Shown here: positions 17,345 through 53,625 of the stretch, piece after piece
Numbering within the stretch: the first letter of the stretch is position 1
Layout of the letters: the number at the start of each line of letters is the position of its first letter
Assembly: GCA_008632985.1 (NCBI GenBank)
Contig: QPGO01000332.1
Coordinates: 1 to 53,625 of the forward strand
DNA from: Psammoneis japonica
Taxonomy: Eukaryota
DNA length: 53,625 nucleotides
Reading direction: 5' to 3'
Notes under the pieces: model-generated
Told to the model about the DNA's origin: nothing
The model's input: the letters and a program-made list of their open reading frames with translations, nothing else
Database searches by the model: none
Translations under genes and position numbers: made by a program

Positions 17345-17665
17345 TGTTGAATAAGTACTGCATCCCTTGACACGTTAACTGGACAGCTAAGCAGAGTATC
17401 CAATATGCTCCATCCGGCGACACTCGCAGCAGCATCAATGCGCATAATATGTAAAAGACCGGAAACAAGAGTATTAGCCAACCTATTCGTGGAATCGAGA
17501 CTGAAGATTGTCTCAAGCCAAAATATCCCCATTAATGTCATCATTGCTACCAAAGCCCATTATCCATATTGCCAGGGAGGCATCAAAAGCAGGAACGTGA
17601 GAATTTCTTGGTGCAGCCCATTGCTAACGGGCGGTTAAGCACGTGACGAGTAGGAGATTGGACAC
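17345..17665 (-). pseudogene. Partial, frameshifted duplicate of the ThrE-like gene at 18893-20784
   Basis: Aligns by eye to 19655-19955 (e.g. AATAAGTACTGCAT, GCAGAGTATCCAA, AAGCCAAAATATCCCCAT). Retains WILCLAVQ.T.QGMQYLF but carries several indels. Confidence 0.8.
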
Positions 17666-25645: not shown

Positions 25646-25703
25646 TTAAAATAGAATTCCAGTAAATAATTGAGGTTAGTTTTTGCGCTTGCTTTTCTAG
25701 ATT

Positions 25704-26741
25704 CTAGCCAAACTTGATATCGCAACTCATGGGGTAATGGTCACTGAGACTATTCCCACCAGCATCTGTCGGCGTCAGATACTCACAGATGGAACCTTTT
25801 CCCGGTGGGACAGCGGTGTTACTCGTATCGTGCAGGATATGATCCAAGGCACGTTGAGTATCGGTGATTTCCCCCGGAATGCCGGCGAGAATCAGATTGT
25901 TGTTGAGTGGGTCAAACGAATATTTCGTACTGCTGGACTTTAGCTCAAGATCATCAGCCTTATCAACATTGTCGCATAGAGCTCGGGTGTGTTCACCTTG
26001 TCTTCGTTGAAATCTCCAACCATGAGCACGAGTTCATTGTCTATATCCTGATCATCAATGAAGGTACGCATTGCCTCATACTGACGCCGACGAACATTGT
26101 GATTTTGAACCAAGAACCATGTGTGGATATTAAACACATTGATCATGACCCCATCCTTGTCAATTCGGGCGTACGACACACCCTCATCCAAACGACACTC
26201 GTTAGGAAGACCACATGCATCCCGAAAGGCTCTAAATTCATGCTTCACAATGGGACATTTGGAGTAAAGTGCCAAACCAGACCCTGATGATCCACGATCG
26301 TCGTAAATGTAGTGACAGTAACCCGCCGCAATCATGGCATCAAGGACTGTACCTTGTTCGGTCCACATTTCCTGAAGAGCCACAACATCGTAGGCATCAC
26401 CGGGAGATTGGGCAAACCATTCACCGATCCGAGCAGCTCGATCTCCCAGTGCCCAAATGCCATCTATTGCTGTCCGAATTAGGTTGAGGTTGTAGCTCAT
26501 TACGAGCACAGATGCAGCATCTGGAGTGCCAGCCGCGCACTTGTCGGATGTTGTGCCATGTTGGAAGGTATGATCCTCTTCGTCGCCATCCACACACACG
26601 CGGCACCATGCATCTTTGTCACATGCATCATTGGCAAAGAGTTTCCGAACACAGCAACTGCTTTCGCATTGGCTGCTCTTGGAGCATTCGCTGCCGTTGG
26701 GAAGCAGCGTTTTGAGCAGTGGTGGCAGTGGGAATCATCAT
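25704..26741 (-). pseudogene. Secreted EEP-family (neutral sphingomyelinase-like) phosphodiesterase, disrupted by Copia insertion and a 1-bp frameshift
   Basis: Motifs MSYN, DVVALQE, SGLALYSK, FNIHT, VGDFN; after a frameshift at ~25965, LDHILH and LSDHYP, with stop at 25704. A Cys-rich N-terminal segment precedes the catalytic domain. Confidence 0.85.
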
Positions 26742-27088
26742 TGTGGGAAAGCAGCCAGAATTCTAAGATTCGTCTGCACTTTCAGTGATTAAAAGCTGCA
26801 ATTGCGATGCAACAATCAATCAGCAACTTTGTTGCACCAAAAGTTGAGAGGTGACAATCAGTGCGTTAGAAAGATTATGAGCAGTTTTTATGAGCAGATG
26901 CAGCTGCCATCTAAAGGAAACGCGAAGTTAAACAAGCGCGAAGCTAGGAACAAACATCGCATCCGTGACTCGGCTTCCGCGGGATTCGAGACTGAGCATC
27001 GCACACGGGGTTCGAATCTTGGATCTCTGACTTGAATCGTGGAGGTCCGATGTTGTTGTAAAAACATGCAAACATGAACATTGTCACA
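26742..27088 (-). repeat. 3' LTR of Copia element
   Basis: Direct repeat of 33505-33851, differing at 7 sites. Confidence 0.97.
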
Positions 27089-27131
27089 CTCCCTTCAACA
27101 ATGTCGGGTGGAATGATGACTCGAAAACGTC

Positions 27132-30100
27132 TTGCCACTTAAGGAGCGATTTCCTGTGTTTGACAAAGAGATTCTGTGGTGGAGGTTTGGCGAAAATGTC
27201 TGCAATCTGATCCGCCGCATCAATTGGCAGGATTGACACGAGACCTTTGCGAACATGGTCTTTAAAGTGGTGAAGAGTGAGGTTGAAGTGTTTTGTCCGA
27301 GGACGCATCTTGGGCAATCTCGCGATCTCCAATGCTCCAGAATTGTCTTCAAAAGCCTTGCAATGTACGACTGGTGTCTTGGAAGGGACATCATGACCGT
27401 GATCCATAAATTCTTGAATGAGGTTCACAATTGGGATGGCGCTTCGAAGACTTTCCGAAAGAGCGACAAACTCAGCTTCAGCAGTGCTGAGCGCGATCTG
27501 AGTCTGCAGCTTGGACGTCCAGACAATCGGACATCCTGCATGGGTGATGACAAACCCAGTTCGAGATTTGGAAGTGCCGACGTCATCGGGTGCAGTCAGC
27601 TTATTCCAATTGCCCACAAAGTCCGCGTCGGCATGAACTTCAAGGGACTTGTCCATTGAGGGCTGCAGTGTGATGCCTTCAGTTCTGGTTGACCTCAGGC
27701 ACTCACAGAGCCATGGCACGGCTTCACCGTGAGAAACCTTGGGATCAGAAGAAAAGCGTGCAACTTGGTGCACCGCGTAAGCGACATCTGGTCGAGTGCT
27801 CTTCTCCAGAAAATTGAGCTTGCCGATGATGGATCGGCAATGAAAGCTCCCTTGGAAAGCAGGCTCACTCATGTGCCTGTGGAGGATCTTGGAGGAAGGA
27901 GCAGGAGCAGACTTGTCTGGCAGTCTCTTTGGAATGTTGGCCATCTCCAGCATCTGATTGACAAGGTGAGGTTGGGCAAGTTTCATTCTGCCATCTGGTG
28001 GTGTCTCGACGTTGACACCGAGACAGTCGTCCAGAGTGCCTTGACCATCAATGTCAAAATTCTCATCTCTGACATCCTGCATCGCCTTGTCAACAGCAGA
28101 CTTGTCAGGGGATGCAAAGATGCCGTCATCGACACAATGAATGAAAATGACATTGCCGCGAAAATGCAGGCACTCATCAACCGCCGATTGTACGAAACCA
28201 ATCCTTGACAATCCATCACGCAAGTGTTCTTGCCATGCTCTCCCTGCTTGCTTTTGTCCATGTAAGTTCTTGAGCAACTTCAGAACATGAGTCTCACCAT
28301 TGCCATGTTTTGTTTCAATTCCTGCAGGTAACTCCATGTGCACATCACATTCGATGTCGGCATGCGGGTGCGCCAGAACGAAGTCGACTTTGCGTGCACG
28401 CCACTTCTTAAGAATGGCAATGATCAGCAGGAGCCGGACAGTGAACCAGAAGACCACGGCAGAGCAGGTCTGGAAGTAGTTGACAGCATACTCTTGCTTT
28501 CCGCCGTGCACATTAAGTCGGGACTTCCATTTGAAGACGGCTTGGGTCTTAAGGCATTCGCACAACCAGCGCACAGTAGCGCAATGTCGGACAGACGACT
28601 GTCGTGCTTTTTTTGCGATTTGCGCGACAAATTGCCGTCGACGCCGACGATGACGATGACATTTTTCTGATTGTCTTACAGAACGACTTTAAAATATGCA
28701 CTTAATAGCGTTATCAATAATGCTCTTAAGAACATCAATACGTAAAGAAAGCTACCCGGACGAGCTCATAATCGTTCGATAATTGAATGCATCAAATGAC
28801 AGTCAAAAAACAGAGCTCAGTATTGGTATGACGTTTTGCGATTGAACGAAGGCTGCTCCTGGTCTATTTCATGACTTGATATGTTCGTAAATTTAATAAT
28901 CTAAATGTCTATAACGCTCAAAAACTCCAGGACACGTCGATGTCGTCGCTATCATTACGACAACGCACCGCCGTCATGTCGCCGATTTTTAGCGATGCTC
29001 GTGTAGCGCGCACGAAGTTTCCAGTACAAAAAAAATTCAGAATGTCAAATCGTCTTGCCATCCATCAGCTCGTTGTGCGAATACGTTAATGTCTCTTTTG
29101 CGCTTCATAGACCACACCGAAGGGAGAACATCAACATCGTCAGGTACGTCCTCTCTTGGAATGAGTGTCCAATGTTTCCTTTCAATGTGATCATTGACCT
29201 CCTTAACACAGGCCTTGATAAATTCGTCTCTGTCAGGTTCACGCATGGCCTGATCAAAGTGCATGGTGCCGGGGTCCGAGCTCGCCAGAAAAGAGATGGG
29301 TGAGTCCACATCGTCCTGCAGTTTGTAATCATCCTCGTGCATCGCATCATAACATGCCTCTGCCTCTGCATTGTAGGAGACAATGCCTTGAGCCCATTGC
29401 AGTTGGCTCTCGCGCATCCTTTCGGTCGGGCGTCGTTGTCGGCCGGACCCACTGGCACTGGGTTGACCCACAGTGCGCTGTGGCTCAGATGGTGCATCAG
29501 AATCATCTGGAGGCGTGCATGGCATTTCATCATCCGGTTGGGCATTGTCAAATGAGTCATCAGTGGTGGACGTGTCAGCAGGATGCAGCAGCTGAGACGG
29601 GACATCCGAGCTCGGCTCAGGTGGTTCCGTTGTGGCAGGGACTGATCCCTCAACCGGTGCGTCACTTGATTTCCCAAAGATGTTGAAAGTGCTCCTTGTC
29701 TTGAGTTGTCTGAAACCTGCAATGCCTTGCCATTGTGAGAATGTAGGAGGATTCCCAGCAAAAGGGCGAACGGTCTCAAAGAAGTCGTCAAATTGTGCGT
29801 GAAATTGCGGCGACACGAGTCCGGTCTGCAAGTTCAAAACCAAGGCAACTGAACCTGCATGTCTTGTTGATGGTCCCAAATTGATTCCCAACTTTGCCCT
29901 TGGGTCCCACTTGGGCAGCCTGCCTCCTCCCTGCAACCGGTTGTGCAAGGCGTAGACGGGACAGCCGAAGGTGTGGTGTTGTTTGAGATTGGGCTGGACC
30001 TTGACGGACGAGAAACGTTCCAGCGGAGAAGAGCCATCCTCGTGATTCGGCAAGTGATTCTTGATCTCGTTTGAGTTCCTGAGAGCGCTTGGCCACAAGT

Positions 30101-31888
30101 TCAACTCAACAGCCGTTGGCCATCTCACTTTTGCATGCAGGAGTTGCTTCCGAGATTGCTCTTGGAGGTCCCTCACTCTTTTCTCCGCGATGCCGTTTTG
30201 GAAGTGGGCGTTGACCCCACAACAGGATGTTGTTTGCTGTTGCTTCTTGACATCTTGTATGAAAGCATTGTCAGCAAATCTTCCATTGTCGGCGTGGTGG
30301 TGTTGAACACGGACGTGCATCCGGCGTGCGAATGCCTCGAAAGCGTGCTTGGCTTCGAGCGTCTCGGCTGAGGCAAGTCCTTTCTGCAAACACATGCATC
30401 CCAATCCGCTGAAATGATCAACAAAATTGTCGCTGCTCGATGCCTTTGTTTCGTAGGTCTCCCTTTGAGCTGTGGGATCAATCCAGGAGTGGGACTCTCG
30501 AGCTGGTCGACGGATGCGGCTTCTCCAGGCGAAGTTGCCAAGTGGATTCGTCGGTTCCGCTTGGACTTGGAGCGCCATGGTCGTTTCGTCATGGCACCGT
30601 GTGGGCAGCCGGCACATTTTGGGTTGTGTGCCTTTGTGAGGTGTTTCGGTAGAATGCCTGGGGCGGCCAATGGCTTTGTCATTTTGAATGACATGTGGCC
30701 CAGGCGGCAATGCCAACGCAACAGTTCACCCTGGTCATCTGTGGCAGCAAGGGCGTCATCATTTGGTGTGATGTTGATGGGTTCCGGCAAGTCCTGCTGT
30801 GCCTCCGGTGTCGTGAAATCTCTTAGGTTTTCCTCGTCTGAGTCTGAACGACTTGCTCCGTCTGTTGGCTCAAATGAGACAGGAGCATCCTCATCAGCAG
30901 TGTTGCGTGCGTCTTGCGTCTCGGAAGGACGTGTCTCGGATGGACTTCTGAAGACGTCTGTGTCAATTGCAGCCTCGTCATCATTCGCAATGCTCTCGTC
31001 ATCTGGTGGTATGATGTGAGCTTGACAGGCCACGTGCTCGATAGTTTCGACATCGGTTTGTCCTTCGACAGCGGCTGCAAAGGTCCGGCATTTGTTGGAA
31101 CCGGGTGCGGAGCGCATCTTGGCGACATTAGAGTTGGCGGACCATGGAATCAGGCGATGGCACTTGTGCTGGTCCCACATCAGCAACAGTCCGTCGTCCC
31201 CAGTCCAAGATGCGGTTCCGTGAGGCTCTGGCGTGTGGTCATTAGCTTGTTGGCTCCATTGCTGCGGGCAGAGAAGACAATGAGGTAAGTCCGGTGCGAG
31301 CAGCGCGTCTCGAATTTTGATGCTGTGCACTCGTCCCATGTCGTCCTCAATTGCCCACTGCACTGTTCCTTCTCCCTTAGCACGCAAGTGGCCCTTGACA
31401 CCGAGTGCCACTTTGTTGGATTTGCGAAGAGGACCAATGAAGTGTGCCTCGTTGTTGGACATGGTGCAGGAAGAATGTGAGTCGACACCGATTGCGAATG
31501 AGTCCGAATCGTAAGTGGGCTCCGTTCGCTCGGGACAGTGTGGTGTGGTTGAGTTGTACGCTCCAACCGTCTTGTGTCGCGCAATGACACAGTGAGCCTT
31601 CTTGGTGGCCACTCTGGAGCGGTGACCTGGCCTCGTCGACGTATGATGCCGTGCACAGTGCCTCGTTGGCCGTCGCTGGTAAGTCTTAACTCGTCTTGTG
31701 CCCAGTTCAGCCAGGACATGTGAGATGACCCACTCACCCAGCGTCATTACGGCATGTGACAGGCGCTTACACTTTTCTGAAGGAAGGGATAGCATCATGA
31801 ACAGCAGCATGATCCAGATCGACACTGCACATTTCATGACGCCAGCGACCGCTGTCAGGAGCACTGACACAGTGACGGCCATCTGCAA
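27132..31888 (-). pseudogene. Copia pol (protease, integrase, reverse transcriptase, RNase H), mutated, frameshifted near 30425 and interrupted by a MITE
   Basis: Motifs IGVDSHSS, WHCRLGH, HADNGRF, QNGIAEK, WSMKRKRD, LKNLHGQKQAGR, CVDDG, TRPD, ADADF, EDNSGA, ADIFAKP. Confidence 0.93.
28553..29085. mobile_element. 533-bp non-autonomous DNA transposon (MITE) with TTAA target duplication, nested in Copia RT
   Basis: TTAA at 28549-28552 and 29086-29089. ~15-bp imperfect TIRs GGCATTCGCACAACC / CGTTGTGCGAATACG. Excision restores KRDIKTQAVFKWK. Confidence 0.9.
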
Positions 31889-31924
31889 GGACAGCAGCAG
31901 TGTCAGAGTGAACCTGCAGAGCAG

Positions 31925-33430
31925 TCACTCTTGATCCACTTCGTTTAGGATGGTAGAGATGGCACTTGCGAAGGAGACTTTCTTGTCCGACGTGTCTGTG
32001 GATGGAGCAGACTGTTGCTTGCAGAGTCTACAGCCTTGGTTGCCCGGATCATCAGGTGAGTGTATGACCCAAGCAGTGTGATGTGGGCACCAGTGATAGT
32101 CGCGATTGTTGACGCGCTTGTGACAGCACTGATGACCGTTCACTGTCTTCTTAGGAGCGTCCTCCTTGGGCGGGACTTTCTTCCAGGCTTCGTCCGCTTT
32201 CTGTCTCTGACGTGGAGTGGTCTTGGTCTTCCTTGACCGTGTGCTTCTTTCCTTGGTTGAACCAGCCTTGGCCTTCAAAGCTTTAGATGGCTGAAGGTTC
32301 TGATCCTTGATGGAGTCTACCTTGGCTGCAAGCGCGACGATTTGCTCTTCAGCCGGTGACAGTGCTCCCCACTTCTTCTCGCGCTTGAGGTCAGCACATT
32401 TGTTCAGTGCCAACGTCATGATTTGCGTCGGCATGAATTCCTCACCGTCGTCGCACCTGTCCTTGTGCAACATGATGTGCTTGACGAACACTTCGTCAGC
32501 AGCTGCGGCGCATCCTTTGAATGGGTTCATGACAAGGTCGTCGCACTGCTCTCCTCTAGCTTGGAGTCCGTCAACGTTGAGCTTGGCGCACTTGTTGAAC
32601 TCTTCGATGTCCGAGTCAACAGCCGCCATGTGCGTGTCCAGGCTTGACAAGTTCTCGCGGAAGTAGTTGGTGGTGGAGCGTGTGTCAACGATGGCCTTTT
32701 GCACAAGCAGCTTGAAGAATGGTGTGCCGATTTGATTTCCATTGATCGTGTGGGAATCTATCTCAGCCAATGTCTTGTCTCTTGCTTCCTCCGTAAGGGA
32801 TTGAGAGATCGCCTCGGCCATCTGCACATTGTTCTGTGCTTGTCGCGTAGGTGGATTCGCGAAGGTGTTCGCGTGGGTTCTAACATCCTGTAGAGTGAGC
32901 AGTCCGTACTCGGAGATGAGATCTCGTGGAGTTCCATTCGCGTCGGGAATGGCGAGCATGTCTCCTGCCCCTGTTTTCCATCCTGCCTCGGCAGCTCGTT
33001 GACTGAGTGTCTCACAAAACCGTTTGAGACCTTCTGAATCGCCGTTGAACTCGTGCGGCAGCGGCACAGTGGCTGCGTTCCAAAGCTTGAGGCCTTGCGA
33101 TGTGCCGCAGTCGATGAAGTTGTTGGGACGGTGTTGACCTGGAGTCAACGCGAAGATCGGCAGTGGTGGCACAGGTGCCAGTGGTGGTCCACCTGGCGGG
33201 ACTCCACCTGGTGGGACTCCACCTCCGCCTCCTCCTCCACCTCCTCCGCCACCTCCTCCTGGAGGCACACCGGGAGGAATGACTGGGGGAGGTGCAGGAG
33301 CAACTGGAGCGGCTGCAGGAGCAGGTGCTGTTGCCGGAGCAGCAGCAGTGGCAGGAGCTGCAGCGGGTGCAGCAGTGGGAGCTGCAACAGAGGCAGCCAG
33401 AGCAGCCGCGGTTCGTGTCTGCGTGACCAT
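31925..33430 (-). CDS. Copia gag protein (501 aa)
   Basis: Pro/Ala/Gly-rich N-terminus, FALTPG motif and C-terminal WCPHH..W..H....C knuckle variant, lying just downstream of the 5' LTR. Confidence 0.85.
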   Translation of the reverse strand: MVTQTRTAAALAASVAAPTAAPAAAPATAAAPATAPAPAAAPVAPAPPPVIPPGVPPGGGGGGGGGGGGGGVPPGGVPPGGPPLAPVPPLPIFALTPGQHRPNNFIDCGTSQGLKLWNAATVPLPHEFNGDSEGLKRFCETLSQRAAEAGWKTGAGDMLAIPDANGTPRDLISEYGLLTLQDVRTHANTFANPPTRQAQNNVQMAEAISQSLTEEARDKTLAEIDSHTINGNQIGTPFFKLLVQKAIVDTRSTTNYFRENLSSLDTHMAAVDSDIEEFNKCAKLNVDGLQARGEQCDDLVMNPFKGCAAAADEVFVKHIMLHKDRCDDGEEFMPTQIMTLALNKCADLKREKKWGALSPAEEQIVALAAKVDSIKDQNLQPSKALKAKAGSTKERSTRSRKTKTTPRQRQKADEAWKKVPPKEDAPKKTVNGHQCCHKRVNNRDYHWCPHHTAWVIHSPDDPGNQGCRLCKQQSAPSTDTSDKKVSFASAISTILNEVDQE

Positions 33431-33504
33431 GGCAACAGCAGAGTAAAGTGGAATCGAGAGCTTAAGATCGATTGACTTAACTTGTAGATTTCGCAGAGGA
33501 AGCG

Positions 33505-33851
33505 TGTGGGAAAGTAGCCAGAATTCTAAGATTTGTCTGCACTTTCAGTGATTAAAAGCTGCAATTGCGATGCAACAATCAATCAGTGACTTTGTTGCAC
33601 CAAAAGTTGAGAGGTGACAATCAGTGCGTCAGAAAGATTATGAGCAGTTTTTATGAGCAGATGCAGCTGCCATCTAAAGGAAACGCGAAGTTAAACAAGC
33701 GCGAAGCCAGGAACAAACATCGCATCCGTGACTCGGCTTCCGCGGGATTCGAGACTGAGCATCGCACACGGGGTTCGAATCTTGGATCTCTGACTCGAAT
33801 CGTGGAGGTCCGATGTTGTTGTAAAAACATGCAAATGTGAACATTGTCACA
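33505..33851 (-). repeat. 5' LTR of Copia element
   Basis: Direct repeat of 26742-27088. Confidence 0.97.
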
Positions 33852-33913
33852 ATCATCATGCCAACAAAGACCACAACGGCCGACAACAACATGGGGCACA
33901 CTCCTTGCTGCAT
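33852..33913 (-). pseudogene. Displaced 5' end (signal peptide) of the EEP gene
   Basis: MQQGVCPMLLSAVVVFVGMM joins in frame to IPTATTAQTLLPNG once the Copia and one TSD copy are removed. Confidence 0.8.
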
Positions 33914-35176
33914 TGAGAACTTTGTGTTGTCATTGTGAATGATGATTCGGCATGGGTTCAGGGTCATGGTCCAAGCACTGCAGCAAAAGGCCTTGCATTG
34001 GTTGGATCGAAACGCCACCTTGGTTTGTGTTCTTGTGTGCTGCGTTTCACGTTTCACTCTGAGCTGTTTCTCTTTGCGGTCGACGCAAGGGCGGCGCCGC
34101 ACAAAGCAGCGCACCGCACGCAACTGACATGCATCCATCGAGGGACTGGCAGTTGTCTTGGTGCTCTGGTTTGCTCCAGGTTTGCAAATTGGAAAAGGGG
34201 CATCTTATGCAGTCACCCCACCAGCATGCATCTTGTCTCAGTGAGAAGCAGATGGGTGGCACCACAGTTTTAAAACTGATTGCACACAACAGCCAGCCCT
34301 CCTGCCTGCTGCTGATGCAAAACAAATCTCCGTGCAGAGGTTAGACTCCTCAACAAAACTCAAGGGGACCCACAACTTTCTCATTGGTGGAAGGCAAGAG
34401 TGCCTACAGACCTGCACATTGGTTTGCTTGTGCGGTCACTTGTTGCTTTAACAATTGGCAAAATTGAGTGTGTGTGAAATCCTCTGTGATGACGCACACA
34501 CACGTGTGTGTGTGCCTCTGGGTTGTTGTTCAAAGTTGTCTGGATGGCTGCAAGAGGGACGAATGGTTGCAGGCAGGAGACAAAAAACATGGTTTCTTGG
34601 AGGCCACGTGTGGAGTGGCCTTGATCTCACAAACCAAAACAGAGCAAGCATGATGAAGGAATTGATCTTTCACAAGTTTTGTTGCACCAAGGTTGATGGC
34701 CAACTCATCACACAACATGTCAAAAGCACACACAGCCCGTTGGGACAACAGCATTGTTGGGTTTGTTTGCAAGAGGCGGTTCATTGACAGGGGGGGTGTT
34801 CAGGTGCTGCCAAGGTGTGGATGTTGTGACCAGCTTTGATGCTCAAGTGTGACCCTCATGGTGTGCTGTCTTGCCAAAACGAGTGGCAAAAAGGCCCGGC
34901 AGGCTGGTCATTGTGCCGGACCCAGATGTGGTCAAAGAGGTGCTTTTGGCCACTTGGCACAATGTCTTCAACTGTGGATGGCAAAAACACAAAAGTCACT
35001 GTTTGGTCACAATTGCAACCCTTGTTTTGCATCTTTGACTTGCTGATGGGTGTCTTTGCTTTCACACACATGTGCAGGCCATGTGAGGTCAGTGCAGGCT
35101 GACAAGACATTCATGATGATGTCTTGGTCATTTGGTGGGCAGTGCTGTCCACTTGTCTGGGTCTCATGCTCACTGC

Positions 35177-38100
35177 TGACAGAAATTGAAGGCAAATGGC
35201 AAGAATTCAAACAACAACTCCTCACTGCTGTCTAAATGGCAGATGAGTCTCTGCTCAGAGACCGTCACAGGAGCCAAAAGACGTGTGAGTCGGTACAATC
35301 AGGCTGCTGTCATCATTCTTGTGAGCCTTGTGGCTCGAAAGCAAACCACATCGCGCGCGAACGCGCGGAACTGAAGCACACAAAACTGTGCGCGGTGAAC
35401 TGAACAGCACGCAACATTTTGCGCGCACCCAAATCCTGTTCAAATCCTGTCACTCCCCAGTTTGCTTGAGGGGTCACAGAAACAGATTCGACTTCGGATT
35501 GACTGAAGAACTTTGGAGTCAAAGCACCAAAACATGAGGAGACAAGAAAGGATCAAGATCCTGGAGCAACGTTGCATTCTCCAAGTGGGTCATCTTGAGA
35601 TGAGCTGCGTCTCCCCAATTGCAGATGCCATTGTGCTTTTCAAAGCTCAAGGCACACTTGGGATCTTGTGGGATTCCACATCCGCACTTGCAATGGAAGG
35701 AGCAAAGCTTGGTCTGGTTGACAATGTTGAAGGGCGGGACAACATCACAGGACAATGCAAACAAGTTGAAATCGCCCTCACTTCCTGAGCAAAGGTCGTA
35801 AAGACTGACAGCCGTCTGTTGGTTCTTGGAACGGTTGCCACACTGGGCTGCTGCTAGAAAAACAGAGCAATGCTCGAGCAGGGTGGCATGGCGGTTGCAC
35901 AACTCGGGGAACAGAGCAAGCATGAGTTCAAAGGCACAAGCAGCGGTCTTGTGTTCCACCAATCTGACTGCAAACTCAGCTGCATCTCCTGAGAGACTGA
36001 TCCAATTGGACAAACGAGTCTCAAGGTGCAAGCCTTCGGGGATCGGATTGGAGCAAGATGTCTTGTGGTGCAAGACTGCAGATGTCTGGTTGGGGCAACC
36101 AGCCCCGTGCTGCAAGACTTCTGGAATCCAAAAGGACTTGCCAGTCTTGTGACACGAGTCTTCGGGGATCTAATCAGGAGGCCAAGTCTTGAGGTGCGAG
36201 ACTTGGGGGATCCAATCAGGAGGCCGAGTCTCATGGCGCAAGACTTGAGGGATCCAACCAGGAGGCCTGGTCTCGAGGTGCGAGACTCGGGGGATCCAAC
36301 CAGGAGGCCCAGTCTCGAGGCACGAGACTTGAGGCATCCAATCAGGAGGCCTGGTCTCGGGGTGCGAGACTTGGGGCATCCAATCAGGAGGCCCAGTCTC
36401 GAGGCACGAGACTTGAGGCATCCAATCAGGAGGCCTGGTCTCGGGGTGCGAGACTTGGGGCATCCAATCAGGAGGCCCAGTCTTGAGGTGCAAGACTTGG
36501 GGCATCCAATCAGGAGGCCCAGTCTCGAGGTACGAGACTTGAGGCATCCGATCAGGAGGCCCAGTCTCGAGGTGCGGTGCAGGGAGGATCCGAGGCCTGG
36601 TCTCAAGGTGCAAGACTTGGAGGATCCAAAGACAACGAAGCTGCTTGGATGTCCTGAACTCCTCATCTGATGAACTGGTTGAACTGTTGTGAACAGATTC
36701 AATGATGGGAAAAGGAGGCTCCCCATCAGGAGATGCAAGAAGCAAGTTGTCATCTCCATCACTTCCCAAACGAAGGCTGTGAAGGGTGACAGCGGTCAAC
36801 ACGTGGAGGTTGGCAGCACGTGGTTTGCGGGGTGCAAAGGCTGCAGCTTTGGAAGCCATGGGTGGAGTGTCCCAACTGGTCTCGAAGTGCAGGCCTGCGC
36901 AAGGGTTGCAATCCTGCACTGGGCCGAGGTTGCTTGCAGGCGGGTTGGTCAAGACATGCGGGGCGCGACTGACACCAGTTCTGGGGGACACCTGAGTGGC
37001 GGCACAGTGCAAGGCTGGTGTCAAAATGGCACCGAGTTCACCTGGTTTGGATGGCAAGGGACTCGGCACAGGTGCGGAGGGTGCTGCGCCAGTGGCTGGA
37101 GAGGTCAAGTGGTCCGGACCAAGGCGGCAGTTGCGAAATTCCTCGGGTGTGAGCAACTGGGGTTCATTGGTCACATCATCACCGTTGCAAACTTTGACAA
37201 AGTAGAAGCTGATCAAAGCGGCTAGGAGGTTTCTGTGGGTGCGTGGCAAAGGCACTGCATTGGCGCCGTCTCTGCAAGCAGGTCGGTGGGAGGGTGCATT
37301 CCAATTTATGGGACAGGGCAGAACAAAGAGGGCTGTCATCGTCTTGATTGAGCACAGTGCCTAGAATGCATTCAAAGCTTTTGGCTTGTTGCTGTTGCGT
37401 GAGAACCATGACGGAGGATGGTGCAGCAGAAACAAAAGACAGGAACCAATCTAGAGCGCGATCTTGGCTCGGAGTTTTGACTTGGAACTTGGCTTGAAAA
37501 AGACTTGACTTGAGCTAGACTTGACTTGAAATCTTGGACTGTCTTAAAATCAGAAGTCGCCGGGTTGTGCTGTCCGTTTTGCAGTTGAGTGCCAAACTTC
37601 CCATCCGGTCCGTAGAGTTGTGCTGGCACGTCCGAACCCACGGCTGGCGGCGCTTTGGGTTGCTCACAAGCGGAGTGGCGGGTTGCAAACCCCTGCAGGT
37701 GAGCTGACCAGGGGTGGACAAGACCCCCAAACCGTTCTCATTTTACATCGGTTGGATTTCCCGATCAGGCTGGCCAGTTGATGCAGGCGTTGGGCGCTGT
37801 GGACGAAGGAACCAACGCAGAAAAAAAACACCCTCGCCCCAACGCAGGCTGCAATCACGGCTGCTTGCTCTCACAGTCATCCTCATGGACCCAGTGGAAC
37901 TGCAGAGCACCAGCAGTCTGGGCAGATCAGGCACAATGGACTCGGTGTGCTTGTGGAGTGGTGGCAAAGCCGCAGTCCAAAGAGTGGGTTCAAGTTCTTG
38001 GCCGTGAAGATGTGTGTGTGTGCATGTGTCTTCAGCAACGCAGATCCTTGAATGTGCAGGGTTCTTGACCGTTGACCGTTGAATGGGTGCATGAAGGGAT

Positions 38101-38648
38101 GAGGATCAAGGATGGACTTGGATGCAACCGATGAATGTGTGTCTTCAGCGACAAAAGGCAGTGTGGTCAATCCAGATGTCCAGCGGCAAGGAGACTTGAT
38201 GGCGACGTTAACTTCCTGCCGATGCCTGGCATTGAATGCGCGCAGACTTGCCGATGTACGTAGAACACACACGGAGGTCCACGCAGAATTGAAAAGCGTC
38301 ATCGGCAAATCAACGACGATGATGGCGGTTGCTCAATGGGTTGACAATGAGCAGACTGTCAATCTGACAGAAATTGAAGGCAAATGGCAAGAATTCAAAC
38401 AACAACTCCTCACTGCTGTCTAAATGGCAGATGAGTCTCCGCTCAGAGACCGTTGCAGGAGCCGAAAGACGTGCAAGTCGGTGCAATCGGGCTAGGGCCC
38501 TACTGTCATTATTCTTGTGAGCCTTGTGGCTCGAAAGCAAACTGCATCGCACGCGAACGCGCGGAACTAAAGCACACAAAACTGTGCGCGGTAAACTGAA
38601 CAGCGCGCGACATTTTGCGTGCACCTGAATCCTGTTCAAATCCTGTCA
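35177..38648 (-). mobile_element. Non-autonomous gag-only LTR retrotransposon (3.47 kb)
   Basis: LTRs at 35177-35452 and 38365-38648 with TGACAG...CTGTCA ends, TSD ACTGC (35172-35176 and 38649-38653), and PPT GGGGAG at 35453-35458. Gag-like start MVLTQQQQAKSFECILGTVLNQDDDSPL at 37409. No pol motifs seen. Confidence 0.9.
36165..36627. repeat. 42-bp tandem repeat (~10-11 units) inside gag-like ORF
   Basis: Unit ~GGGGCATCCAATCAGGAGGCCCAGTCTCGAGGTGCGAGACTT, encoding the 14-aa repeat LETGPPDWMPQVS(Y/H/C) on the minus strand. Confidence 0.95.
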
Positions 38649-40329
38649 ACTGCACTGGATGCTGCATGCTGCCCAGCCCAAGTGGCAGCAGCAACCAAAA
38701 ATCAAAGCACAGTGGAAGATTGAGGTGAGGCTCTTCCAGCCAATGAACTACAAGACAAGATGCCCCCCTGGTGCCTGCCAATGGAAGTGATGTCAAGAAG
38801 TCAAAGGGTGTGGGGCACACCCCTGTGGTGCACAGCCAGAAGCTGCAGCAGCAGCAACAATGCCCAAGCTTTTTGCTGGTGATGCTGCACTCAACAACAG
38901 CACATTGTTGGCAAGGCCATTCTTGCAAGTGCAAAAGTTGTTGTGGAAGCAAGGAAAAGAAAACAGATCAAGGCAGCACTTGTCTGTGTGTGTGTGTGTG
39001 CAACTTGGCACTTTTTTGTGAAACACCAACAGTGTGGAGATGATGATTTGGCATGGGCTCAGGGTCATGGTCCAAGCTCTGCAGCAAAAGACCTCGTCAG
39101 TTGGATTGAAATGCCATTTTGGTTGCATTGGTTTCACTTTTCACCACTGTGTGAGAGCTGCATTGGCTGTGGGGTGGTTCTCCACTGTTCTGTTTTTGTT
39201 GCTGTCAATGCAAGGGCAGCAGCATCACACAAAGCAGCCATCGTTCTCCACTCTAGAGCAGAGAGCATTGGAACAAAATGGGGACTTTGAGTTGTCTTGG
39301 TGCTGGTCAACCACTGGCTCGCATCTTGTCTCAGCAAGAAGATGGGTGTGACAGCACTGCAGATCCAAAACTGATTGCATGACAGCCCTGATGAAAATCT
39401 GGAGGTTTGCCTTCACCAGATTCAGGTGAACCCACAACTTTGTCATGTTGGTGAAAGGCAAGAGTGCTTGGGGTCCTGTGAATTGGGCTGCTTGCATGGT
39501 CATTTCTTGCTTCAACAGTTGGCAGAATTGAGTGTGTGTGCTCCTCTGATGTGTGGATTGTTTTTCAAAGCTGGACAAAAATTGTTGGACAAACCATGGT
39601 CACCTGCAGACACCAAACATGGTTTCTTGGAGGCCAGCACTTGCAGAGAGCAGTCTTGATCTTGCAGACAAAAGCAGAGAAAGCATCAAGCTGGTGCATC
39701 AAGGTTGGCTAATTTGTCGCACAACATGTCATGAGCACTGCCAGCTGGGGTGACAACATTGCTGGGTTTGTCTGCAAGAGGTGGATCATTCTTGGCTGGG
39801 GGGTTTCACGTGCCACCAAGGCATGGGTGTCAGCCATGACCAACTTTGATGCTCAAATGTGGCCCTCCTGGTGTGTGGTCTTGCCAAAAAGAACAATGAA
39901 AAGTTGAGGCTGGTCATTGTGCTGGATGCAGTCAAAGAGGTGCTTTTGGCCACTTGGCAATGTCCTCAGCTGTGGGTGGCAAAAAGACAAAAGGCAGGCT
40001 GATGAACCATTTGTGTTGATTTCTTGGTCATTTGGTGGGCAGCATTTTTGTCCACTTGTCTGGCCTCAGGATCCCTGGACACATCATGCTGTCCAGCACA
40101 AGCAGCAGCAGCAGCCAAAAAATCAAATCGCATGCTGAAAAGATTGAGGCAAGGTTCCGCCGCAGCCAATGAACACCAAGACAAGATGCCCCCCTCGTGC
40201 CCACAAATGGAAGTGAAGACAAAGAATGCAGCACTCTTGCACACACTTGCACACACTGCCCTCCTCAGCCAAGTGCATTGTCAGCCACTTCATTGCTCTA
40301 GAAGGAAAATGCACATCCCACCTCCCCAC

Positions 40330-43300
40330 CAATGATGGTGCTGCCATCAAGATCCAGCAACCACATGTTGGCCAAAACTCTGTCACTTTTTGACATCCTG
40401 CTGCTCCACATCATTTCATCCATTTCCTCTCTAGACCCAAGTGAATGTTGAAAGTTTAAGGATCTGACATGCCCACATCAACAAATGGCACAAAAAGACT
40501 TGTGCTTTGCAGAACATTGGTCCAAATGGGCCACTGCGACCACTGCAAGCTCTTGCAGTCACTCACAGGCCTTTGGACATGGCGGGGCGATTTTAGGGAA
40601 AAAGATGGCAACCCTGCAGCAGGGCCCCACATTGTGTGACACTGCACATGAGCAATGCAGTGCTTGGGCCATGGGTGCACATGCTCTTGACTGCTGCACA
40701 GAGAGTCTGTGTGGCACGATCACAGGACCCCCCCCAATGCCCCACTGCATCCAAAGCCCTGGTCACTGACATCAACACTGACAAAATGGCAGGCAAAATG
40801 AAAATGCAAGTGGAACAAAAGCACACACAATTGGGAATCACCAGGACACCTGTCACAGCACACTTGCCTGGCCACCTTGCAGAGGCAGCTCTGAGTCACC
40901 CTGCTGAGTTTCATGGTCTCAAAAGTGTTGCCAGCAGTTTGTGGCATCTGCACATCCAAGAGGAGGTGAGGAGTCCGGCAAAACAACCCCCCTTCTCTCT
41001 GTCTCACCCAGCACAAAGCCCAGACTCACAGCTGCACTGCCAAGATGTGACATCTTCCAAAATGAGGTGTGTGACATCATGTCTCAGATGGCAAAGACAG
41101 TGTGGTTGCATTGCGGGAAGAAAAGGTTGGTGAAGACCAGATGCCACCAGTGTGCATGAACAAGGCAACACACAATGAACACTTGCAAGGCATGCAAGCT
41201 TCATCAAAATGGCCCCAAAACTCAATCAGTCACAGCGTGCTTTATTTTGCTCATGCACAGTGCTGTCAGAAATTGGGGTGGCAAAAAAAATGACGTGCCA
41301 TCATTGTGCACTGACCAAGACCCCCCAAAAAGACACTGAGTGCATCACAAATCCATCTTGTTCAAATTGGGTGCACCAGTGGATGCAAAGTGGAGAGAAG
41401 CACAAGGCTCTCTCAAACGGATGTGCTGTGGTGGTGCAAGTGTGCAAATGCCATCAAAAAGACACCAATGTTGCAGACACAATGACCGGCTGCACCAGAT
41501 GATTGACTTTGCAGGGTGCAACAAAAGCCACAATGATCTTTGGCAAATGGGAAAAGGATGCCAAACAAGAAAACATGGAAAGAACTTGCCACAGCAATGT
41601 TGTTGACCATTCAGATGTCACCCGGACAGCACAGCAATTGAGTCACAAGTCAACAAGGCACAGAGCTGTTTGTGCTGTGTGTGGCAACCAAAGCCCCCCC
41701 CAGGAAACCAAACCCATGCACCAACCTCTTCACTTGTGGCAACAACAGAAAAAGAACCTGCATGAAAAATGCATTGGCTCCATGATGTTTGCCATGTCAA
41801 AATGCGTCAAAGTGCAGTGTGCCATTTTCCATGCCAAATCAGGAATGTTTGGGTCCAATTGACTTGTTCAATCACTGTGCAATCCAAGGTCTGATGATTC
41901 TCCAACACATCCAGCAACAAGACTTTGCAATGGTCCCAGCTTGTCGTGCTGGCTGAGTGCTCCTCAGCTGTTTCAAGGAAGCTGAATGCTGGCCTCGTGC
42001 TGCTTGTCACAATCCGTTTTGCCAAAACAAGACTTTTGTTTTGGCCAGCTGCCATTTGGCCCCTCTTTCAAATGTCTCCACCACCAGTGCCACCAACAAA
42101 CAGAAGCTTGCCCATTGCACAAATGTTTCTGCAACATGCGAGACAAACATTCTTTTGCCATTGGACAACACAGACACTGGCGCCCTGTCTGTCCATCTTG
42201 CATGTTTACAATCAGGGACTGCAGCACATTGCAAAGCCTCCCATGCAGATGCAGATCCGATGCTGTGTGCTCTTGCAACTCCAGAATGTCTTTCATCTGT
42301 CTCCAGCCCTCATTCTGACCAAACTTGTCCACATGGAGTGCAAGAACATGAGCTCAGAGTTTTTGGCATGCTGCAGCCCTTTGGATGATTTGGCTCAAGC
42401 TGTTTTGCCAACTCCATCATTTTGACAGCATGTGGCAGATGCATCCCAAGGTCCCTGCATTTCTGGTGACATCAAAGTCCACATGTTGCCAGCTGCCGGC
42501 ATGAGTTTTTGTTCTCAAGCACATGTTTCAAAGCTGGAGGTGCAGCTGATGAATTGAAAACACCCATTTTTCAGTCAAGTCAAGAACCACAACTTTGTCA
42601 CACAACTCACCAGGGAAGCAAATCTGAGTTGCTTTTGTCATTGGTCTTGTTTCATCCAGATTGCACTCCAAGTTGAGACCACAAATGGCCTCACTGTCAA
42701 GATTGGAAACCTTGTTGGCCATGCTGAGGGCCCAGTTCTTGACCTCAGTTTTGGTTGAGAACACAACAAACTTGTCTTTTGCCAAAGCGGCCCAAAAAGC
42801 CCATCTGAGACTTGCACTGCCATGGCTTTATGTTCTTGTGCAGTTCTTGAAACACATTGGGCCACAAACTGTGGTCTCCACCACCATTGCCTTCAGCCCT
42901 TTTCAGCTCAGCAGCCCTGCTCTTGGTTTGTGCAGTTTGGCAGAGTGCAAAATGTGGCCTGAGCTCATCATTTGATTTTGTGTGGGAAAACAATTAAAGT
43001 TGACCTTGCCCTCATTTGACAGGGAATCACACATTGAGAGGAACTTTTTTCTTGCTTGCTTTGATGCTGGCACCATTTTGGCAAACTCAAATGAATGGTT
43101 GCTGCTCTCTGAGTTGTCAGGGTTCAAATGGAAGCTTTCCTGAAAATGTGACTCACAAATGTTCACAACTTGGCAAGGGAAATTGTAAAGCCACAACAGC
43201 GTCAGTGCAGCGCAGCATGTTTTTTAAAATGTCAAGCTGCAACAAGAGATGCACCTGCAGAAACACCTTTTCAGGAGACATGGACGGTTTCAACAGCACA

Positions 43301-45950
43301 CCATTGCACTCATGCCAGCAGACTGAAACAAAAAAAGCTGCAGGACAAAATCACCATCTGACGCAAGAGCTTTTTGGCCTGCCACCTTGTCAGAAAGCAT
43401 GTCATCCCCTTCCTCCTGGCCTCATGGTGCCATCTCATTTCTCGCCATTTCTGCAGCTGCCCTGAGATTTTCCAAGGCCTGAATTTGCTTTTCCTCTTTG
43501 CTTTTTTGCTTGCCAATCAATGTTTGCTCCAAAGCCCTGCACCTTTCCCTTGCTCTGGCCACTTGCTGCTCCACTTTGACTGCTTTCTGATGCTTGATTT
43601 CTTGTCTGGCATGTGCTTCCACTGCCATTGCCACCAGCAAATTATTTTGCTTTCATGCCATCTCTTCTTCAAGCATCATGCTCAGCCCCTGGTGGGGTTC
43701 CTTCTTGTCTCCTTTGATGTGAGCCACTCTTCTGTCAGAGCCTTTTCTGCTGCCACCGCTGCCAGTTCTGGTGCCTGTGGTGATGGGTGCTGTCATGGTG
43801 TGTTCATGCCAACATTGCAACACCCAGGTTGCTTTGGCAGCATCCTTTGCATTTGGCCATGTCACACTGCAACCAAGCCTCAACAACAAAATTTAAAATG
43901 GGATTTGCAATGCATGTGAAGCAAGGCACAGGCTTGTTGCTCCTGAGTGGTGGGGCACAAGATCAGATGGCATCTCTTGCTTTGACCACTGCACAACACA
44001 ATGTTTGTTGAGGGGATGATCTTTGTGGGTTTCTTCATCAAAGGCTTGAGGATCAAAAGTGAAGCATTCTGTGGAGGGTCATCTGGTTGTGCATGAATCC
44101 ATGCACCAGCATGTCAAAATGTCTGTCATTGTGGCCAGTTGGTTTTGTCTTTGATTGTCAATTGCCTGATGCTGGCATTGCTCTTGACTGGCATGATGAC
44201 GACCAATCTTGTGATCCTGCATGTTGACTTGAAAGACGACTTTTCCAAAACAATCTTGTCACCATGTGTTGCTCTCACCACATGGCTTGCATCATTGATT
44301 TCTGCTTCATGTGCATCTCCACCTCCCTCTGTTTGCAACATGAACAATGGTGTGCCTCCTTTGCTCCAGTGTCCAGCGGGAAATGATTGTCCCATGTGTG
44401 GCAAACATTTCCTTCCAACTTGTCTTCAACATCACCTCAGAACTCATCTGAGATGCAAACTTGCCTTTTCTCAACACATCTGTGTTTCAGGCAATGAATC
44501 AGCAGGCATTCACAGCAAAGTGGCATCATCAGAGGAGCCCAAAGATCCTCCCATTGAAATGGCTGCAACTGGGAACAGTTTGTCTCACTCAAATGTTGCA
44601 CCTGCTCCACAAGTTCACTTGCAACACAACCCTTGGCCATTGAAATCCAATCATGCTGTGGCACTGGTGCAACAGTCATGTTTTCCCCTTGAGACACCAC
44701 CATTTGGCCAGGCACCAACAATGTTCCAGAGTGTGCGTTCCCAGACAACAATGGATCGGTGGTTTCTGAAACATTTGGTGACAGCAGGTCTCTTCTTGTT
44801 TCTGACATGTTTGCCACTGATGTCAACTCAGGTTCTTTTGTTGTGCTGGATTGAATTGAGCCCCATTTTGCTGATGATGATCTTGTTGTCTGTCTAATCT
44901 TGACATTCCTTTTGAGTTGCTGTTGTCTCAGGTCCTCTCCTCTGGCAAACAGTTTCAGGTTGACAGGCTTTTGGTCGATGAGAGAAACAGAGGGAGTGAT
45001 GGCAGCATTTCACCACAACAGATGCATGGCAAAACTGATGTGCTGTTGTCAGGTGCAGCTTTCTCCACTTGCTCAGCTTGGGCAACCACCATGTTGATGC
45101 AGTCCACAGGACACGGTGGCAACAGGCACAGCTCTCAACCGGCTGGCGCAGCAGTCACTGCTCAGGGAGCAACAACACCAGCCATCCTCTTCATCTGTGT
45201 CATCGGATCAAACTGGAAGCAAAAACTGTGGCCATGCCACTGCTGAATCAAGCTTGACAAGCATGAGCAGTTCCACCTCTGCACAGCTGGGAACTCAGAA
45301 AAAGAAACACAGAAGCCATGGCAGTCATCTTGGAGTGCAAGTTTTTGATGGTGCAATCTGAATCACAGCTTTTTGAATCCATGCTTTGCATCTGGAATGG
45401 TGACAAAAAATTGTGGATCTCTCAGCCCTTCCTGTTTCTGGTTGTCAAAAGAGAAGGATCCCAACCCGGCTCATGAGATCCCACTGCAGCCTTGGTTGCA
45501 CCATGCAGGCAGAAGGTGGAGTGGACCCAACTGATTGCAGGGTCAACAGGAAGGCCACTTTTGTCATTTTGTCATTGCAAATGATGTGAAGTGAGCTGCC
45601 ATCACAATTTTCTGGGACCGTTCTTGTTCTTGTGTTTGCCACAGCAGGTGAAAATTGATTGGGGATGAGCAAAACATGCGGGGGGGGGGCAACAACAAAA
45701 CACGCACAAAAACAACACACAGGAAAACTTGCATGACAGTTGTCACTGATGTGCAAATGGCAAGTGCAACTGCAACAGGAGACATCAAAGAAAATGCTTC
45801 TAGTGTGGAGAGATGACAGATGGCCATTTTCAATGAATCTCATGGTCTTTTGACTGGGTTGGATGGGCAAAAACAAAAGATCGTCATCATTTCTGTCTGT
45901 CTGCAGTTCATCTGTTGGAATGATGCCGGCAGATGCAACTTAGACAGATG
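40330..45950. mobile_element. Highly decayed unclassified repeat(s), including a 3'-5' exonuclease-like remnant
   Basis: TpA and CpG are nearly absent. Minus strand 42560-42780 ICGLNLECN...ATQICFP...VVVLDL resembles a DEDD exonuclease ExoI region (weak). Confidence 0.4.
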
Positions 45951-45984
45951 CTCAAGACCCATCACACTTGTGGTGGGAAGCCAG

Positions 45985-46817
45985 GTGGAGGGGTGCAATT
46001 TTGGGGTGTAAAAACACGCGTCCCTTAAAAAACATTGCAGCCAACAAATCTGGCACCAGACAGAGACATGCATTTTGTGTCATTGACCACTCAGTGGTTG
46101 GTGATTGCAGACTTTTTCATGTTGGTTTGTCAGTTTGTTGCCATTTGAAAGTGTGTCCCTTGGATTTTGGAATGGCATGGGCTCTTTAGTGTGCAAGTGA
46201 ATCACTCGAATTTGTGGAATGATCATTGAGGACATTGTGGTTCATGGGGACTTCCTAAAAAATTGACAAATTCTCTGCGATGGGTGCGTGGAACTGTTTT
46301 TCAGTGGAGCTCGAAAATGCTGTAAAAGATGCATTCCAGCTCTGGGTGGGACCGCACACTGTGATGCTGAACTCATGGATGCACCAAACTGTGACATCGA
46401 CAGTTTTTTGGATCGTGCCGCATGTCGTGCACGTGGAAAGGTGTGTGACTTTTGTGAAAATGTGTGTCATTTTGTGGCACACTCATTGAGCAATCTGTCC
46501 AACAGCTTTTGACATTTTTTGTTGCAGCACAACAGAATTGTGCAGGGCAGGCACATTGTTTGCAAAAATGTTGAGTGGTGAGAGGCACAATTGCACCTCA
46601 AACTTGGCAGTTTGTTTGATGTTGAAGACAAACATGTCCATTGATTTGCTCACACTGCGGAGCTGGCACGCAAAATTCCAGCGATTTGATGTGCGCAAGG
46701 TTGCAGCGGAGCCGCCAAATGCCATGGTGTTTTGATGCAGTCTCATGAATGTTTCTTGCCATGACTTCCAGCTTGTGTCAACAATTGATTTGCGATTTAC
46801 AGTCATCCAATTTCACA
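45985..46817. repeat. Relic related to the MITE at 48163-48871
   Basis: 46691-46820 aligns with 48557-48760. 45990-46020 (GGGGTGTAAAAAC) matches the MITE subterminal repeat. Confidence 0.55.
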
Positions 46818-53300: not shown

Positions 53301-53625
53301 GAATGGACGCGGCTGAGGTTTGGTCATGTGGACGGTGTGTGTTGTCAGGGTGGGCAGGATGCAAGACACAAAATTGGCGCAAAAATGGCGATCATTGATC
53401 ATTTTGCATCAATGAATGCTTTTGCAGTTGCCTGACAAAAGGATGCGTTGGGACAATTGAACACTTTCAGGTTGTGCAACAAATGAGAATGCAAAAACTT
53501 GCCAACGGAAAGGGAAGAGCAAGTTAGAACACAGTCTTCGGAACATTTTGTGATCACCGCTCACTGTCAATTCGTTGACTTGCGCACGCAGTGAAAAGGC
53601 TCGGGTTGTCCCATGTCCGTCAGTT

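Follow-up and report, generated by a model that had tools for sequence, protein, structure and literature searches.

Why would a retrotransposon whose reading frames are still long have lost most of its conserved tyrosines (Tyr)? The question is raised by a Ty1/Copia element with long terminal repeats (LTRs) at positions 26742-33851 of a 53,625-nucleotide stretch of the genome of the diatom Psammoneis japonica (GenBank assembly GCA_008632985.1, contig QPGO01000332.1, positions 1 to 53,625 of the forward strand), hereafter called the window. A first-pass annotation, made from the sequence alone, had noted that conserved Tyr codons of the element read Cys or His and had proposed a repeat-targeted mutator that converts TpA dinucleotides to TpG or CpA. 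Our analysis indicates that the locus as a whole is probably best explained by hypermutation of TpA to TpG/CpA at the DNA level, confined to transposon-rich DNA. The parts of the Copia element on which the argument draws are as follows.

26742-33851, minus strand: Ty1/Copia LTR retrotransposon, recognised by paired LTRs, the order of its open reading frames (ORFs) and Pfam domains.
26737..26741, unstranded: left copy of the target-site duplication ATCAT, whose five bases recur at 33852-33856.
26742..27088, minus strand: 3' LTR of 347 bp with TG..CA ends, aligned to 33505-33851.
27084..28688, minus strand: reverse transcriptase (RT)/RNase H (RH) ORF with CVDD in place of YVDD, extending into the LTR (Pfam RVT_2, E 6.5e-26).
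27132..27134, minus strand: lost pol stop codon, CAA here and TAA elsewhere, from contigs of other copies.
29037..30725, minus strand: integrase C-terminal ORF in a frame that differs from that of the upstream ORF (Pfam SH3_retrovirus).
30173..31924, minus strand: protease/integrase N-terminal ORF with WHCRLGH (Pfam gag_pre-integrs and Pol_BBD; Tyr 0.7%).
31925..33544, minus strand: gag ORF terminated by TGA, from the ORF list (Tyr 0.7%).
33505..33851, minus strand: 5' LTR of 347 bp, pairing with 26742-27088.
33852..33856, unstranded: right copy of the target-site duplication ATCAT.

Every motif on which the first reading was built is present, with CVDD, LHGQKQ, DCLG, CRSIIG, HADAD and IFAKPP all found in the minus-strand ORF 27084-28688 and WHCRLGH in the minus-strand ORF 30173-31924. 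The RT/RH ORF holds 3 Tyr in 535 codons, and Tyr makes up 0.6-0.9% of residues across the four Copia ORFs. An alignment with 80 relatives yielded 239 conserved columns, 13 of them conserved for Tyr, of which the Copia element keeps 2, the others having become Cys (5), His (3), Phe (2) and Leu (1); Tyr content is 0.6% in the element versus 4.2% in the 80 relatives. At the nucleotide level, the element contains 109 TpA versus 408 +/- 14 in mononucleotide shuffles, with an observed/expected ratio (o/e) of 0.27 for TpA and 0.85 for CpG, and in this element the loss of TpA is indeed distinct from CpG decay, as had been claimed.

The direction of change was read from other genomic copies and from protein outgroups. 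For the former, contigs from three runs of one sample were aligned to positions 25000-35000 at 80% likeness. Depth was about 60 in the unique flanks and about 2000, summed, over the Copia element, so that the Copia family is multi-copy. Differences between the window and the other contigs, written as window>other, comprised C>T 193, G>A 189, A>G 144 and T>C 133 in X1, or 659 transitions against 119 transversions, and C>T 55, G>A 58, A>G 16 and T>C 5 in X2. Among the 40 best-supported of 788 difference places, the window reads CA (11) or TG (8) where the other copies read TA at 19, and the opposite arrangement occurs at none; a further 10 have CA/TG in the window against CG elsewhere, 3 are CpG changes in the opposite direction, and 8 are other changes. 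At position 27134, in the putative pol stop, the window has G where all depth of the other copies (726/726, 2 contigs) has A; the other copies thus read TAA where the window Copia reads CAA, as the annotation had supposed. In the X2 contigs, which have a depth of 400-500 over the element (flank 50-66), segments of 82-113 bases within the Copia are omitted (29139-29231, 29656-29745, 31283-31378, 31511-31592, 32054-32152 and 32388-32500); these have GT..AG ends and start with GTAAGT or GTGAGT on the plus strand, antisense to the Copia ORFs. The gaps look like those of a spliced antisense transcript of the Copia family, X2 itself resembling RNA contigs though not being recorded as RNA.

Protein outgroups point in the same direction. 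They polarised 35 resolvable single-base changes in RT codons, of which 14 were A>G (10 in TpA, all of these in TAY, where Y is a pyrimidine) and 6 were T>C (5 in TpA), so that 15 of the 20 A>G/T>C changes sit in TpA; the remaining 15 of the 35 are scattered over seven types. An error-prone polymerase eta, with its WA motif, had been offered as one candidate mutator and was rejected: the 4 A>G codon changes outside TpA include no case in ApA, and the young repeat pairs contain no purine transition outside YpR. One related NCBI protein, P0002, which shares 64% identity with the Copia RT and is encoded on a contig of 47,284 bases, stands out as the exception among the 120 relatives compared for Tyr: it is itself depleted in Tyr (0.8%), and its residues at 14 Tyr columns include 3 Tyr, 6 Cys and 3 His, in a pattern unlike that of the window Copia, which suggests independent hypermutation of a related element in some genome.

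These comparisons make it extremely unlikely that no special process was at work, whether the cause is sought in artefacts of assembly or sequencing, in GC-biased gene conversion, in biased mismatch repair or in a family consensus that already carried Cys or His. Gene conversion of this kind likewise favours AT to GC, but the change seen here is specific to TpA, not a general AT>GC shift, and is accompanied by GC>AT at CpG. The family-consensus version, which the annotation had named as a condition that would overturn its proposal, is refuted, as the other copies carry TA and 118/120 protein relatives retain Tyr in at least about 70% of the conserved Tyr columns. Contigs span both Copia junctions with 0-3 differences, and a TpA o/e of 0.03 over 8 kb with sharp edges, described below, lies far past compositional drift.

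Does the process act on RNA, on cDNA or on chromosomal DNA? The two Copia LTRs, 100% identical under purine/pyrimidine coding, differ at 7 sites (3 TA/CA, 2 CG/TG and 2 CA/TG doubles), and a second LTR pair in the window (35176-35452 and 38364-38648) differs at 16 (5 TA-type, 7 CG-type and 4 doubles). All of these differences (7/7 and 16/16) are exchanges between {TA,CG} and {TG,CA}, with 0 transversions, and 13 of the 15 differences in a third young pair (46818 and 47145) fall in the same class. As a control, genic paralogues of about 300 bp near ThrE-like ORFs (17349-17665 and 19656-19955) show 25 transversions among 49 differences, of which only 11 are in the {TA,CG}/{TG,CA} class. Because the LTR pairs differ by such changes alone, the process acts on DNA after integration. 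Its products are strand-symmetric, with TG 979 versus CA 984 in 7250-15900 and TG 866 versus CA 889 in 38700-46200, two TpA-depleted blocks listed below, and the comparison with other copies is equally balanced (window C/other T 193, window G/other A 189). Mutation is therefore seen on both strands in equal measure and at the DNA level, as the annotation had anticipated, and almost exclusively as A>G and T>C transitions, with CpG transitions intermixed.

The divergence of the LTR pairs together with the strand-symmetric products rules out editing of RNA or single-strand cDNA as the main cause. In the most specific form of that explanation, ADAR-like A-to-I editing would have altered the retrotransposon RNA before reverse transcription and the edited copy would then have integrated. 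Such editing would be inherited identically by both LTRs, the preference of ADAR for a 5' U matches TpA (a point also made in the Discussion of Mettrop et al., bioRxiv 10.64898/2026.01.13.699255), and double-stranded RNA could have formed, given that the family seems to be transcribed into a spliced antisense RNA. Yet the sense strand carries both A>G (14) and T>C (6) changes rather than A>G alone, the LTRs have diverged after integration by the same type of change instead of being fixed beforehand, and large adjacent blocks with no sign of retro-origin carry a saturated signature. Largely refuted by the strand symmetry, RNA editing is in our view very improbable. ADAR and APOBEC3 share with the present case clustered, deaminase-type transitions that cripple retroelements, and ADAR also the 5' U preference, but both act before integration on one RNA or cDNA strand, whereas the changes here affect both strands and continue afterwards; APOBEC, moreover, yields G>A or C>T in place of A>G.

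The signature extends well beyond the Copia element, and the following further features of the window are affected.

7250..15900, unstranded: saturated block with TpA o/e 0.03-0.07, CpG 0.08-0.17 and TG/CA 1.75-1.9; edges near 7000-7250 and 16000.
26500..26741, unstranded: TpA-poor stretch left of the Copia, with 2 TA and 56 TG+CA in 26500-26749.
33857..35175, unstranded: older mutated block right of the Copia, with 0-4 TA per 250 bp.
35176..38648, unstranded: second LTR-bounded element (LTRs 35176-35452 and 38364-38648) with {TA,CG}/{TG,CA} differences.
38700..46200, unstranded: saturated block with TpA o/e 0.02-0.10 and CpG about 0.1, from dinucleotide counts.
48869..50965, minus strand: second retroelement with an RVT_1-type RT and a CVDD active site, from tblastn with diatom relatives.

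In genes, measured in 2-kb windows, TpA o/e is 0.5-0.7 and CpG about 1, whereas across the affected DNA TpA o/e is 0.03-0.27 and TG/CA 1.4-1.9. The two saturated blocks retain 24 TA and 67 CG in 8651 bp (7250-15900) and 21 TA and 53 CG in 7501 bp (38700-46200), with TG/CA o/e at 1.75-1.96, and at the edges near 7000-7250 and 16000 TpA falls within one 250-bp step. The change of TpA to CpA/TpG slightly raises GC. A comparison proposed in the annotation, of dinucleotide o/e in transposon-rich DNA and genes, thus came out within the window as predicted (TpA 0.02-0.27 vs 0.5-0.7), and the claim of a mutator acting on mobile DNA agrees with a sharp-edged confinement that spares genes, the transposon nature of the two saturated blocks being unproven. 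The spared left flank carries ordinary genes: purK/purE, a histidine phosphatase, ThrE, a TLC protein, a hybrid histidine kinase and an Exo_endo_phos protein. The purE/purK host gene is 75% identical to a diatom transcriptome protein, its sole named match.

The Copia element is a half-mutated copy nested within an older, near-saturated island. The TpA-poor stretch at 26500-26741 is probably the end of an older mutated block that the Copia split, an account we prefer to leakage of mutation into the flanking gene; further left of 26500 there are 9-12 TA per 250 bp, and the first Met of the ORF flanking the Copia lies near 26500. To the right, 33857-35175 has a paralogue at 39038-39993 with 89-97% similarity under purine/pyrimidine coding and stands at single-copy depth (55-70). 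TpA-poor DNA on both sides of the Copia implies that a single island, more depleted in its older pieces, extends from 26500 to the end of the window. In the younger pieces of this island TpA loss precedes CpG loss, the stretch 46250-53625 having a TpA o/e of 0.08-0.19 and a CpG o/e of 0.7-0.8.

Only part of this DNA could be assigned to known elements, and the earlier statement that retroelements and DNA elements are hit alike has to be narrowed to the two retroelements that we identified, the saturated blocks containing no recognisable protein. Pfam searches of 215 ORFs (74 + 141) from the saturated blocks gave no credible match, an HMMER search with ORF 44097-44894, the longest of its block, returned 2 weak repetitive matches and no real homologue, and tblastn of 32 retroelement proteins against the window found matches limited to the two known elements. 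Homologues of the RVT_1-type element number 60, including a named one from the diatom Cylindrotheca; the relatives carry FVDD (22) or YVDD (19) at the catalytic motif, and CVDD occurs in the window copy alone, whose further changes are mostly of CG>CA types (V>I, D>N, R>Q, R>H). As a test of Tyr loss this family is weak, as its relatives are Tyr-poor (mean 1.2%) with one conserved Tyr column. The RVT_1-type relatives P0121-P0169, from metagenomes and diatom data, have 0-2.5% Tyr (mean 1.2%), which may be a family trait or may mean that many deposited copies are TpA-mutated themselves. The LTR-bounded element 35176-38648, for its part, has no recognisable protein and contains a 42-bp tandem array of about 15 units (36018-36647).

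The same direction of change accounts for the ORF landscape of the window. A:T>G:C transitions turn no sense codon into a stop and remove TAA and TAG, which leaves long overlapping ORFs in all frames; accordingly, the blocks are full of such ORFs because TAA and TAG are nearly absent. The regions 7000-16000 and 34000-53625 are crowded with overlapping long ORFs in six frames, and the window holds 88 ORFs of at least 130 amino acids. The sense-frame ORFs of the Copia element are interrupted by TGA, and every stop that ends one is TGA because A:T>G:C transitions remove the other two. The description of the element as otherwise intact did not survive closer comparison: most other copies have one base more after 28999 (a G, in 630/1106 depth) and after 30422 (an A, in 4747/7070 depth), and these two 1-bp deletions in the window copy fit the frame changes between the Copia ORFs. 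With a CVDD active site in RT, which should inactivate the element, the loss of Tyr, two 1-bp deletions and in-frame TGA, the window copy is dead. In other respects it conforms to the Ty1/Copia type, with paired TG..CA LTRs, a 5-bp duplication, the order gag, protease, integrase, RT and RH, and an RVT_2 domain; a Pfam search with the gag ORF 31925-33544 gave no match. The nearest RT proteins are at most 66% identical to the Copia RT, the few named ones coming from Thalassiosira and Cyclotella. Diatom Ty1/Copia elements of the CoDi type (Maumus et al. 2009, PMC2806351) share, as far as the available part of that paper goes, the LTRs, the 5-bp duplication, the domain order and RVT_2, but unlike these the window copy has been inactivated.

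What directs mutation to this DNA? The annotation regarded it as repeat-targeted, and a homology-triggered process resembling repeat-induced point mutation (RIP), where duplication itself would be sensed and mutated with a chemistry unlike that of fungal RIP, draws support from the multi-copy Copia family (summed depth of about 2000 vs 60 in the flanks), from the fact that all affected DNA appears to be transposon-derived or repeated within the window, and from the presence in diatoms of DNMT4 enzymes akin to the RID of fungi, given as of unknown function in the part of Hoguin 2023 (PMC9998398) available to us. In contrast, 19 of the 40 listed places still read TA in the best-supported family contigs, so that many copies are unmutated, 34018-35000 is saturated at single-copy depth, the main target in the chlorarachniophyte Bigelowiella natans is single-copy according to the main text of Mettrop et al., and the Copia lies inside an older mutated island, as a regional trigger would have it. 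We regard a homology trigger as rather unlikely, and a chromatin or regional trigger, which fits at least equally well, is modestly favoured over homology sensing because many family copies keep TA while the window copy, in an old island, does not.

The flanking sequence of surviving TpA offers a view of the chemistry. As a measure of context we took surviving TA/(TA+TG+CA+CG) per flanking context, with both strands of the saturated blocks pooled (R, purine; Y, pyrimidine).

RTAY: 0/1916 in saturated blocks, 388/1738 in genes.
YTAY or RTAR, each: 12/2190 in saturated blocks, 338/1985 in genes.
YTAR: 74/1956 in saturated blocks, 182/1714 in genes.

The 49 surviving TpA are mainly TTAA, CTAA/TTAG and CTAG. 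Given a gene-like starting composition, survival amounts to about 0% at RTAY, about 3% at the half-sites and about 36% at YTAR, which fits an A in 5'-TAY-3' having changed about six times faster than one in TAR. YTGY exceeds YCAY by 1289 to 820 in the blocks, compared with 662 to 559 in genes. This TAY preference with its sparing of YTAR is new relative to the first-pass annotation, as is a slower, parallel decay of CpG to TpG/CpA. That decay is of the methyl-CpG type: CG has given TG/CA at 10/40 polarised sites, all LTR pairs contain CG-type differences, and CpG o/e reaches 0.08-0.17 in the oldest blocks, cytosine methylation here being putative. However, methyl-CpG decay cannot yield TG/CA from TA, and in the Copia and at 46-53.6 kb TpA loss leads CpG loss.

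The context data also bear on whether a base is deaminated outright or first modified. TpA might carry 5-hydroxymethyluracil (5hmU), made by a TET/JBP-type enzyme and mispairing with G, or N6-methyladenine that is subsequently misreplicated or deaminated. TpA is self-complementary like CpG, which would suit a symmetric modification affecting either strand, and the half-site rule, with R before or Y after, is reminiscent of a site recognised in the manner of a methyltransferase; in dinoflagellates, 5hmU is enriched at TpA. The bias from YTAY towards YTGY, on the other hand, points to a single-strand context around the A and so to a deaminase working on one strand, and we consider base modification improbable, though less so than RNA editing.

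Several points weigh against hypermutation of TpA by a TAY-preferring deaminase in transposon DNA. The context calculation presumes that the blocks started from a gene-like tetranucleotide composition. The mutated strand reads TAY at 13 of the 19 polarised TpA sites and TAR at the other 6, and among the 3 TA/CA differences that separate the two Copia LTRs 2 fall in YTAR; the TAY rule expresses a preference and is not absolute. Two Tyr codons became Phe, an A>T change at TA that is no direct product of deamination. The counts of polarity rest on the 40 best-supported of 788 difference places, and the three runs, which may be the source of the assembly, reveal paralogues rather than giving independent confirmation. 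By Pfam, HMMER and tblastn, the two saturated blocks gave no evidence of transposon identity. Finally, the deaminase step is inferred.

The annotation knew of no description of such a system, but the same TpA-only signature has been described in B. natans, in a preprint of April 2026 (Mettrop et al., bioRxiv 10.64898/2026.01.13.699255). According to its main text, 231 of 302 new mutations in mutation-accumulation lines lay in integrated giant-virus and virophage regions; all but one of the 231 were A>G or T>C, those all at TpA, with activity in 11/15 lines, a rate of about 6e-7 per site per generation and a de novo rate raised about 1000-fold. Among the coding sequences of B. natans, those poor in TpA showed an enrichment of RT and DDE domains, and the candidate named there is ADAT2-like. 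Both systems share the nearly exclusive A>G and T>C changes, the restriction to TpA and the action on both strands, and in the window too the mutated A or T lies in TpA and gives TpG or CpA. They differ in that B. natans, a chlorarachniophyte (Rhizaria), provides a directly measured rate, while our data represent a footprint in a diatom (stramenopile), and in that the B. natans targets are giant-virus and virophage insertions with a modest depletion (Rho 0.45), as opposed to transposons depleted to an o/e of 0.03. The TAY preference and parallel CpG decay seen here are given nowhere in that main text, which makes no mention of diatoms, stramenopiles, CpG or extended context, and whose supplements may hold context data. 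What is new here is the diatom lineage and the saturation-level footprint.

Compared to fungal RIP, the process shares hypermutation by transitions at the DNA level that inactivates transposons and leaves skewed dinucleotides in sharp-edged blocks. RIP, in contrast, changes C to T, mainly CpA to TpA, creates new stops, leaves the DNA AT-rich and is set off before meiosis by duplication, whereas TpA here becomes CpA/TpG, TpA is depleted rather than in excess, and stops are removed, the ORF-ending ones all being TGA. Full-text literature searches returned no report of TpA hypermutation in diatoms. In the available parts of the texts, the terms TpA and deamination are absent from Maumus et al. 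2009 (PMC2806351), and a study of mutation accumulation in P. tricornutum (PMC6604790) mentions neither transposable elements nor TpA hypermutation and reports the usual GC>AT bias.

We propose that A:T to G:C transitions convert TpA to TpG or CpA in transposon-rich, presumably silenced DNA, on both strands and continuing after integration, with A before a pyrimidine (5'-TAY-3') as the favoured target; YTAR is relatively spared because the process prefers an A followed by a pyrimidine. CpG decays to TpG/CpA in parallel and more slowly, as expected from cytosine methylation of diatom transposons, and reading frames remain long while Tyr codons turn into Cys or His and the YVDD of RT into CVDD. 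The data establish the dinucleotide and the direction of its change, the symmetry between strands, the activity after integration, the confinement to certain regions and the bias in context; the chemistry is inferred. Adenine deamination appears to be the simplest route to A>G: adenine in DNA would be enzymatically deaminated to hypoxanthine, which is read as G, and a context confined to one strand, with T before the A and Y after it, would suit recognition of a flipped-out base by an enzyme. A34, which follows U33, is the target of tRNA adenosine deaminases. Our leading guess for the enzyme is an ADAT2/TadA-like DNA adenine deaminase, which may be directed to foreign or heterochromatic DNA as has been proposed for B. 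natans; ADAT2 of trypanosomes and amphioxus is reported to be active on DNA in the main text of the same preprint (Mettrop et al., bioRxiv 10.64898/2026.01.13.699255). More tentatively, diatoms may possess an enzyme system that deaminates chromosomal adenine at 5'-TAY-3' in silenced or foreign DNA, shared with chlorarachniophytes and old within the stramenopiles, alveolates and Rhizaria (SAR), a possibility to which we give less than an even chance. If true, it would represent a natural DNA adenine editor that serves genome defence beside cytosine methylation and is able to erase every TpA of a transposon.

The footprint has consequences for the annotation of genomes, in that it produces long false ORFs able to mislead gene callers, makes transposons invisible to protein searches (16 kb of saturated DNA gave no Pfam match) and invalidates dating by LTR divergence. 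To our knowledge, natural enzymes able to edit adenine in chromosomal DNA have yet to be characterised, and the adenine base editors in current use are TadA variants evolved in the laboratory; the TAY-versus-YTAR rule provides a concrete prediction for work in vitro. If our reading holds, TpA-directed hypermutation would not be a quirk of one chlorarachniophyte but a means of genome defence that extends to a second group, one that dominates ecologically and is amenable to genetics, and since transformation and knockout are feasible in some diatoms, the enzyme would become findable.

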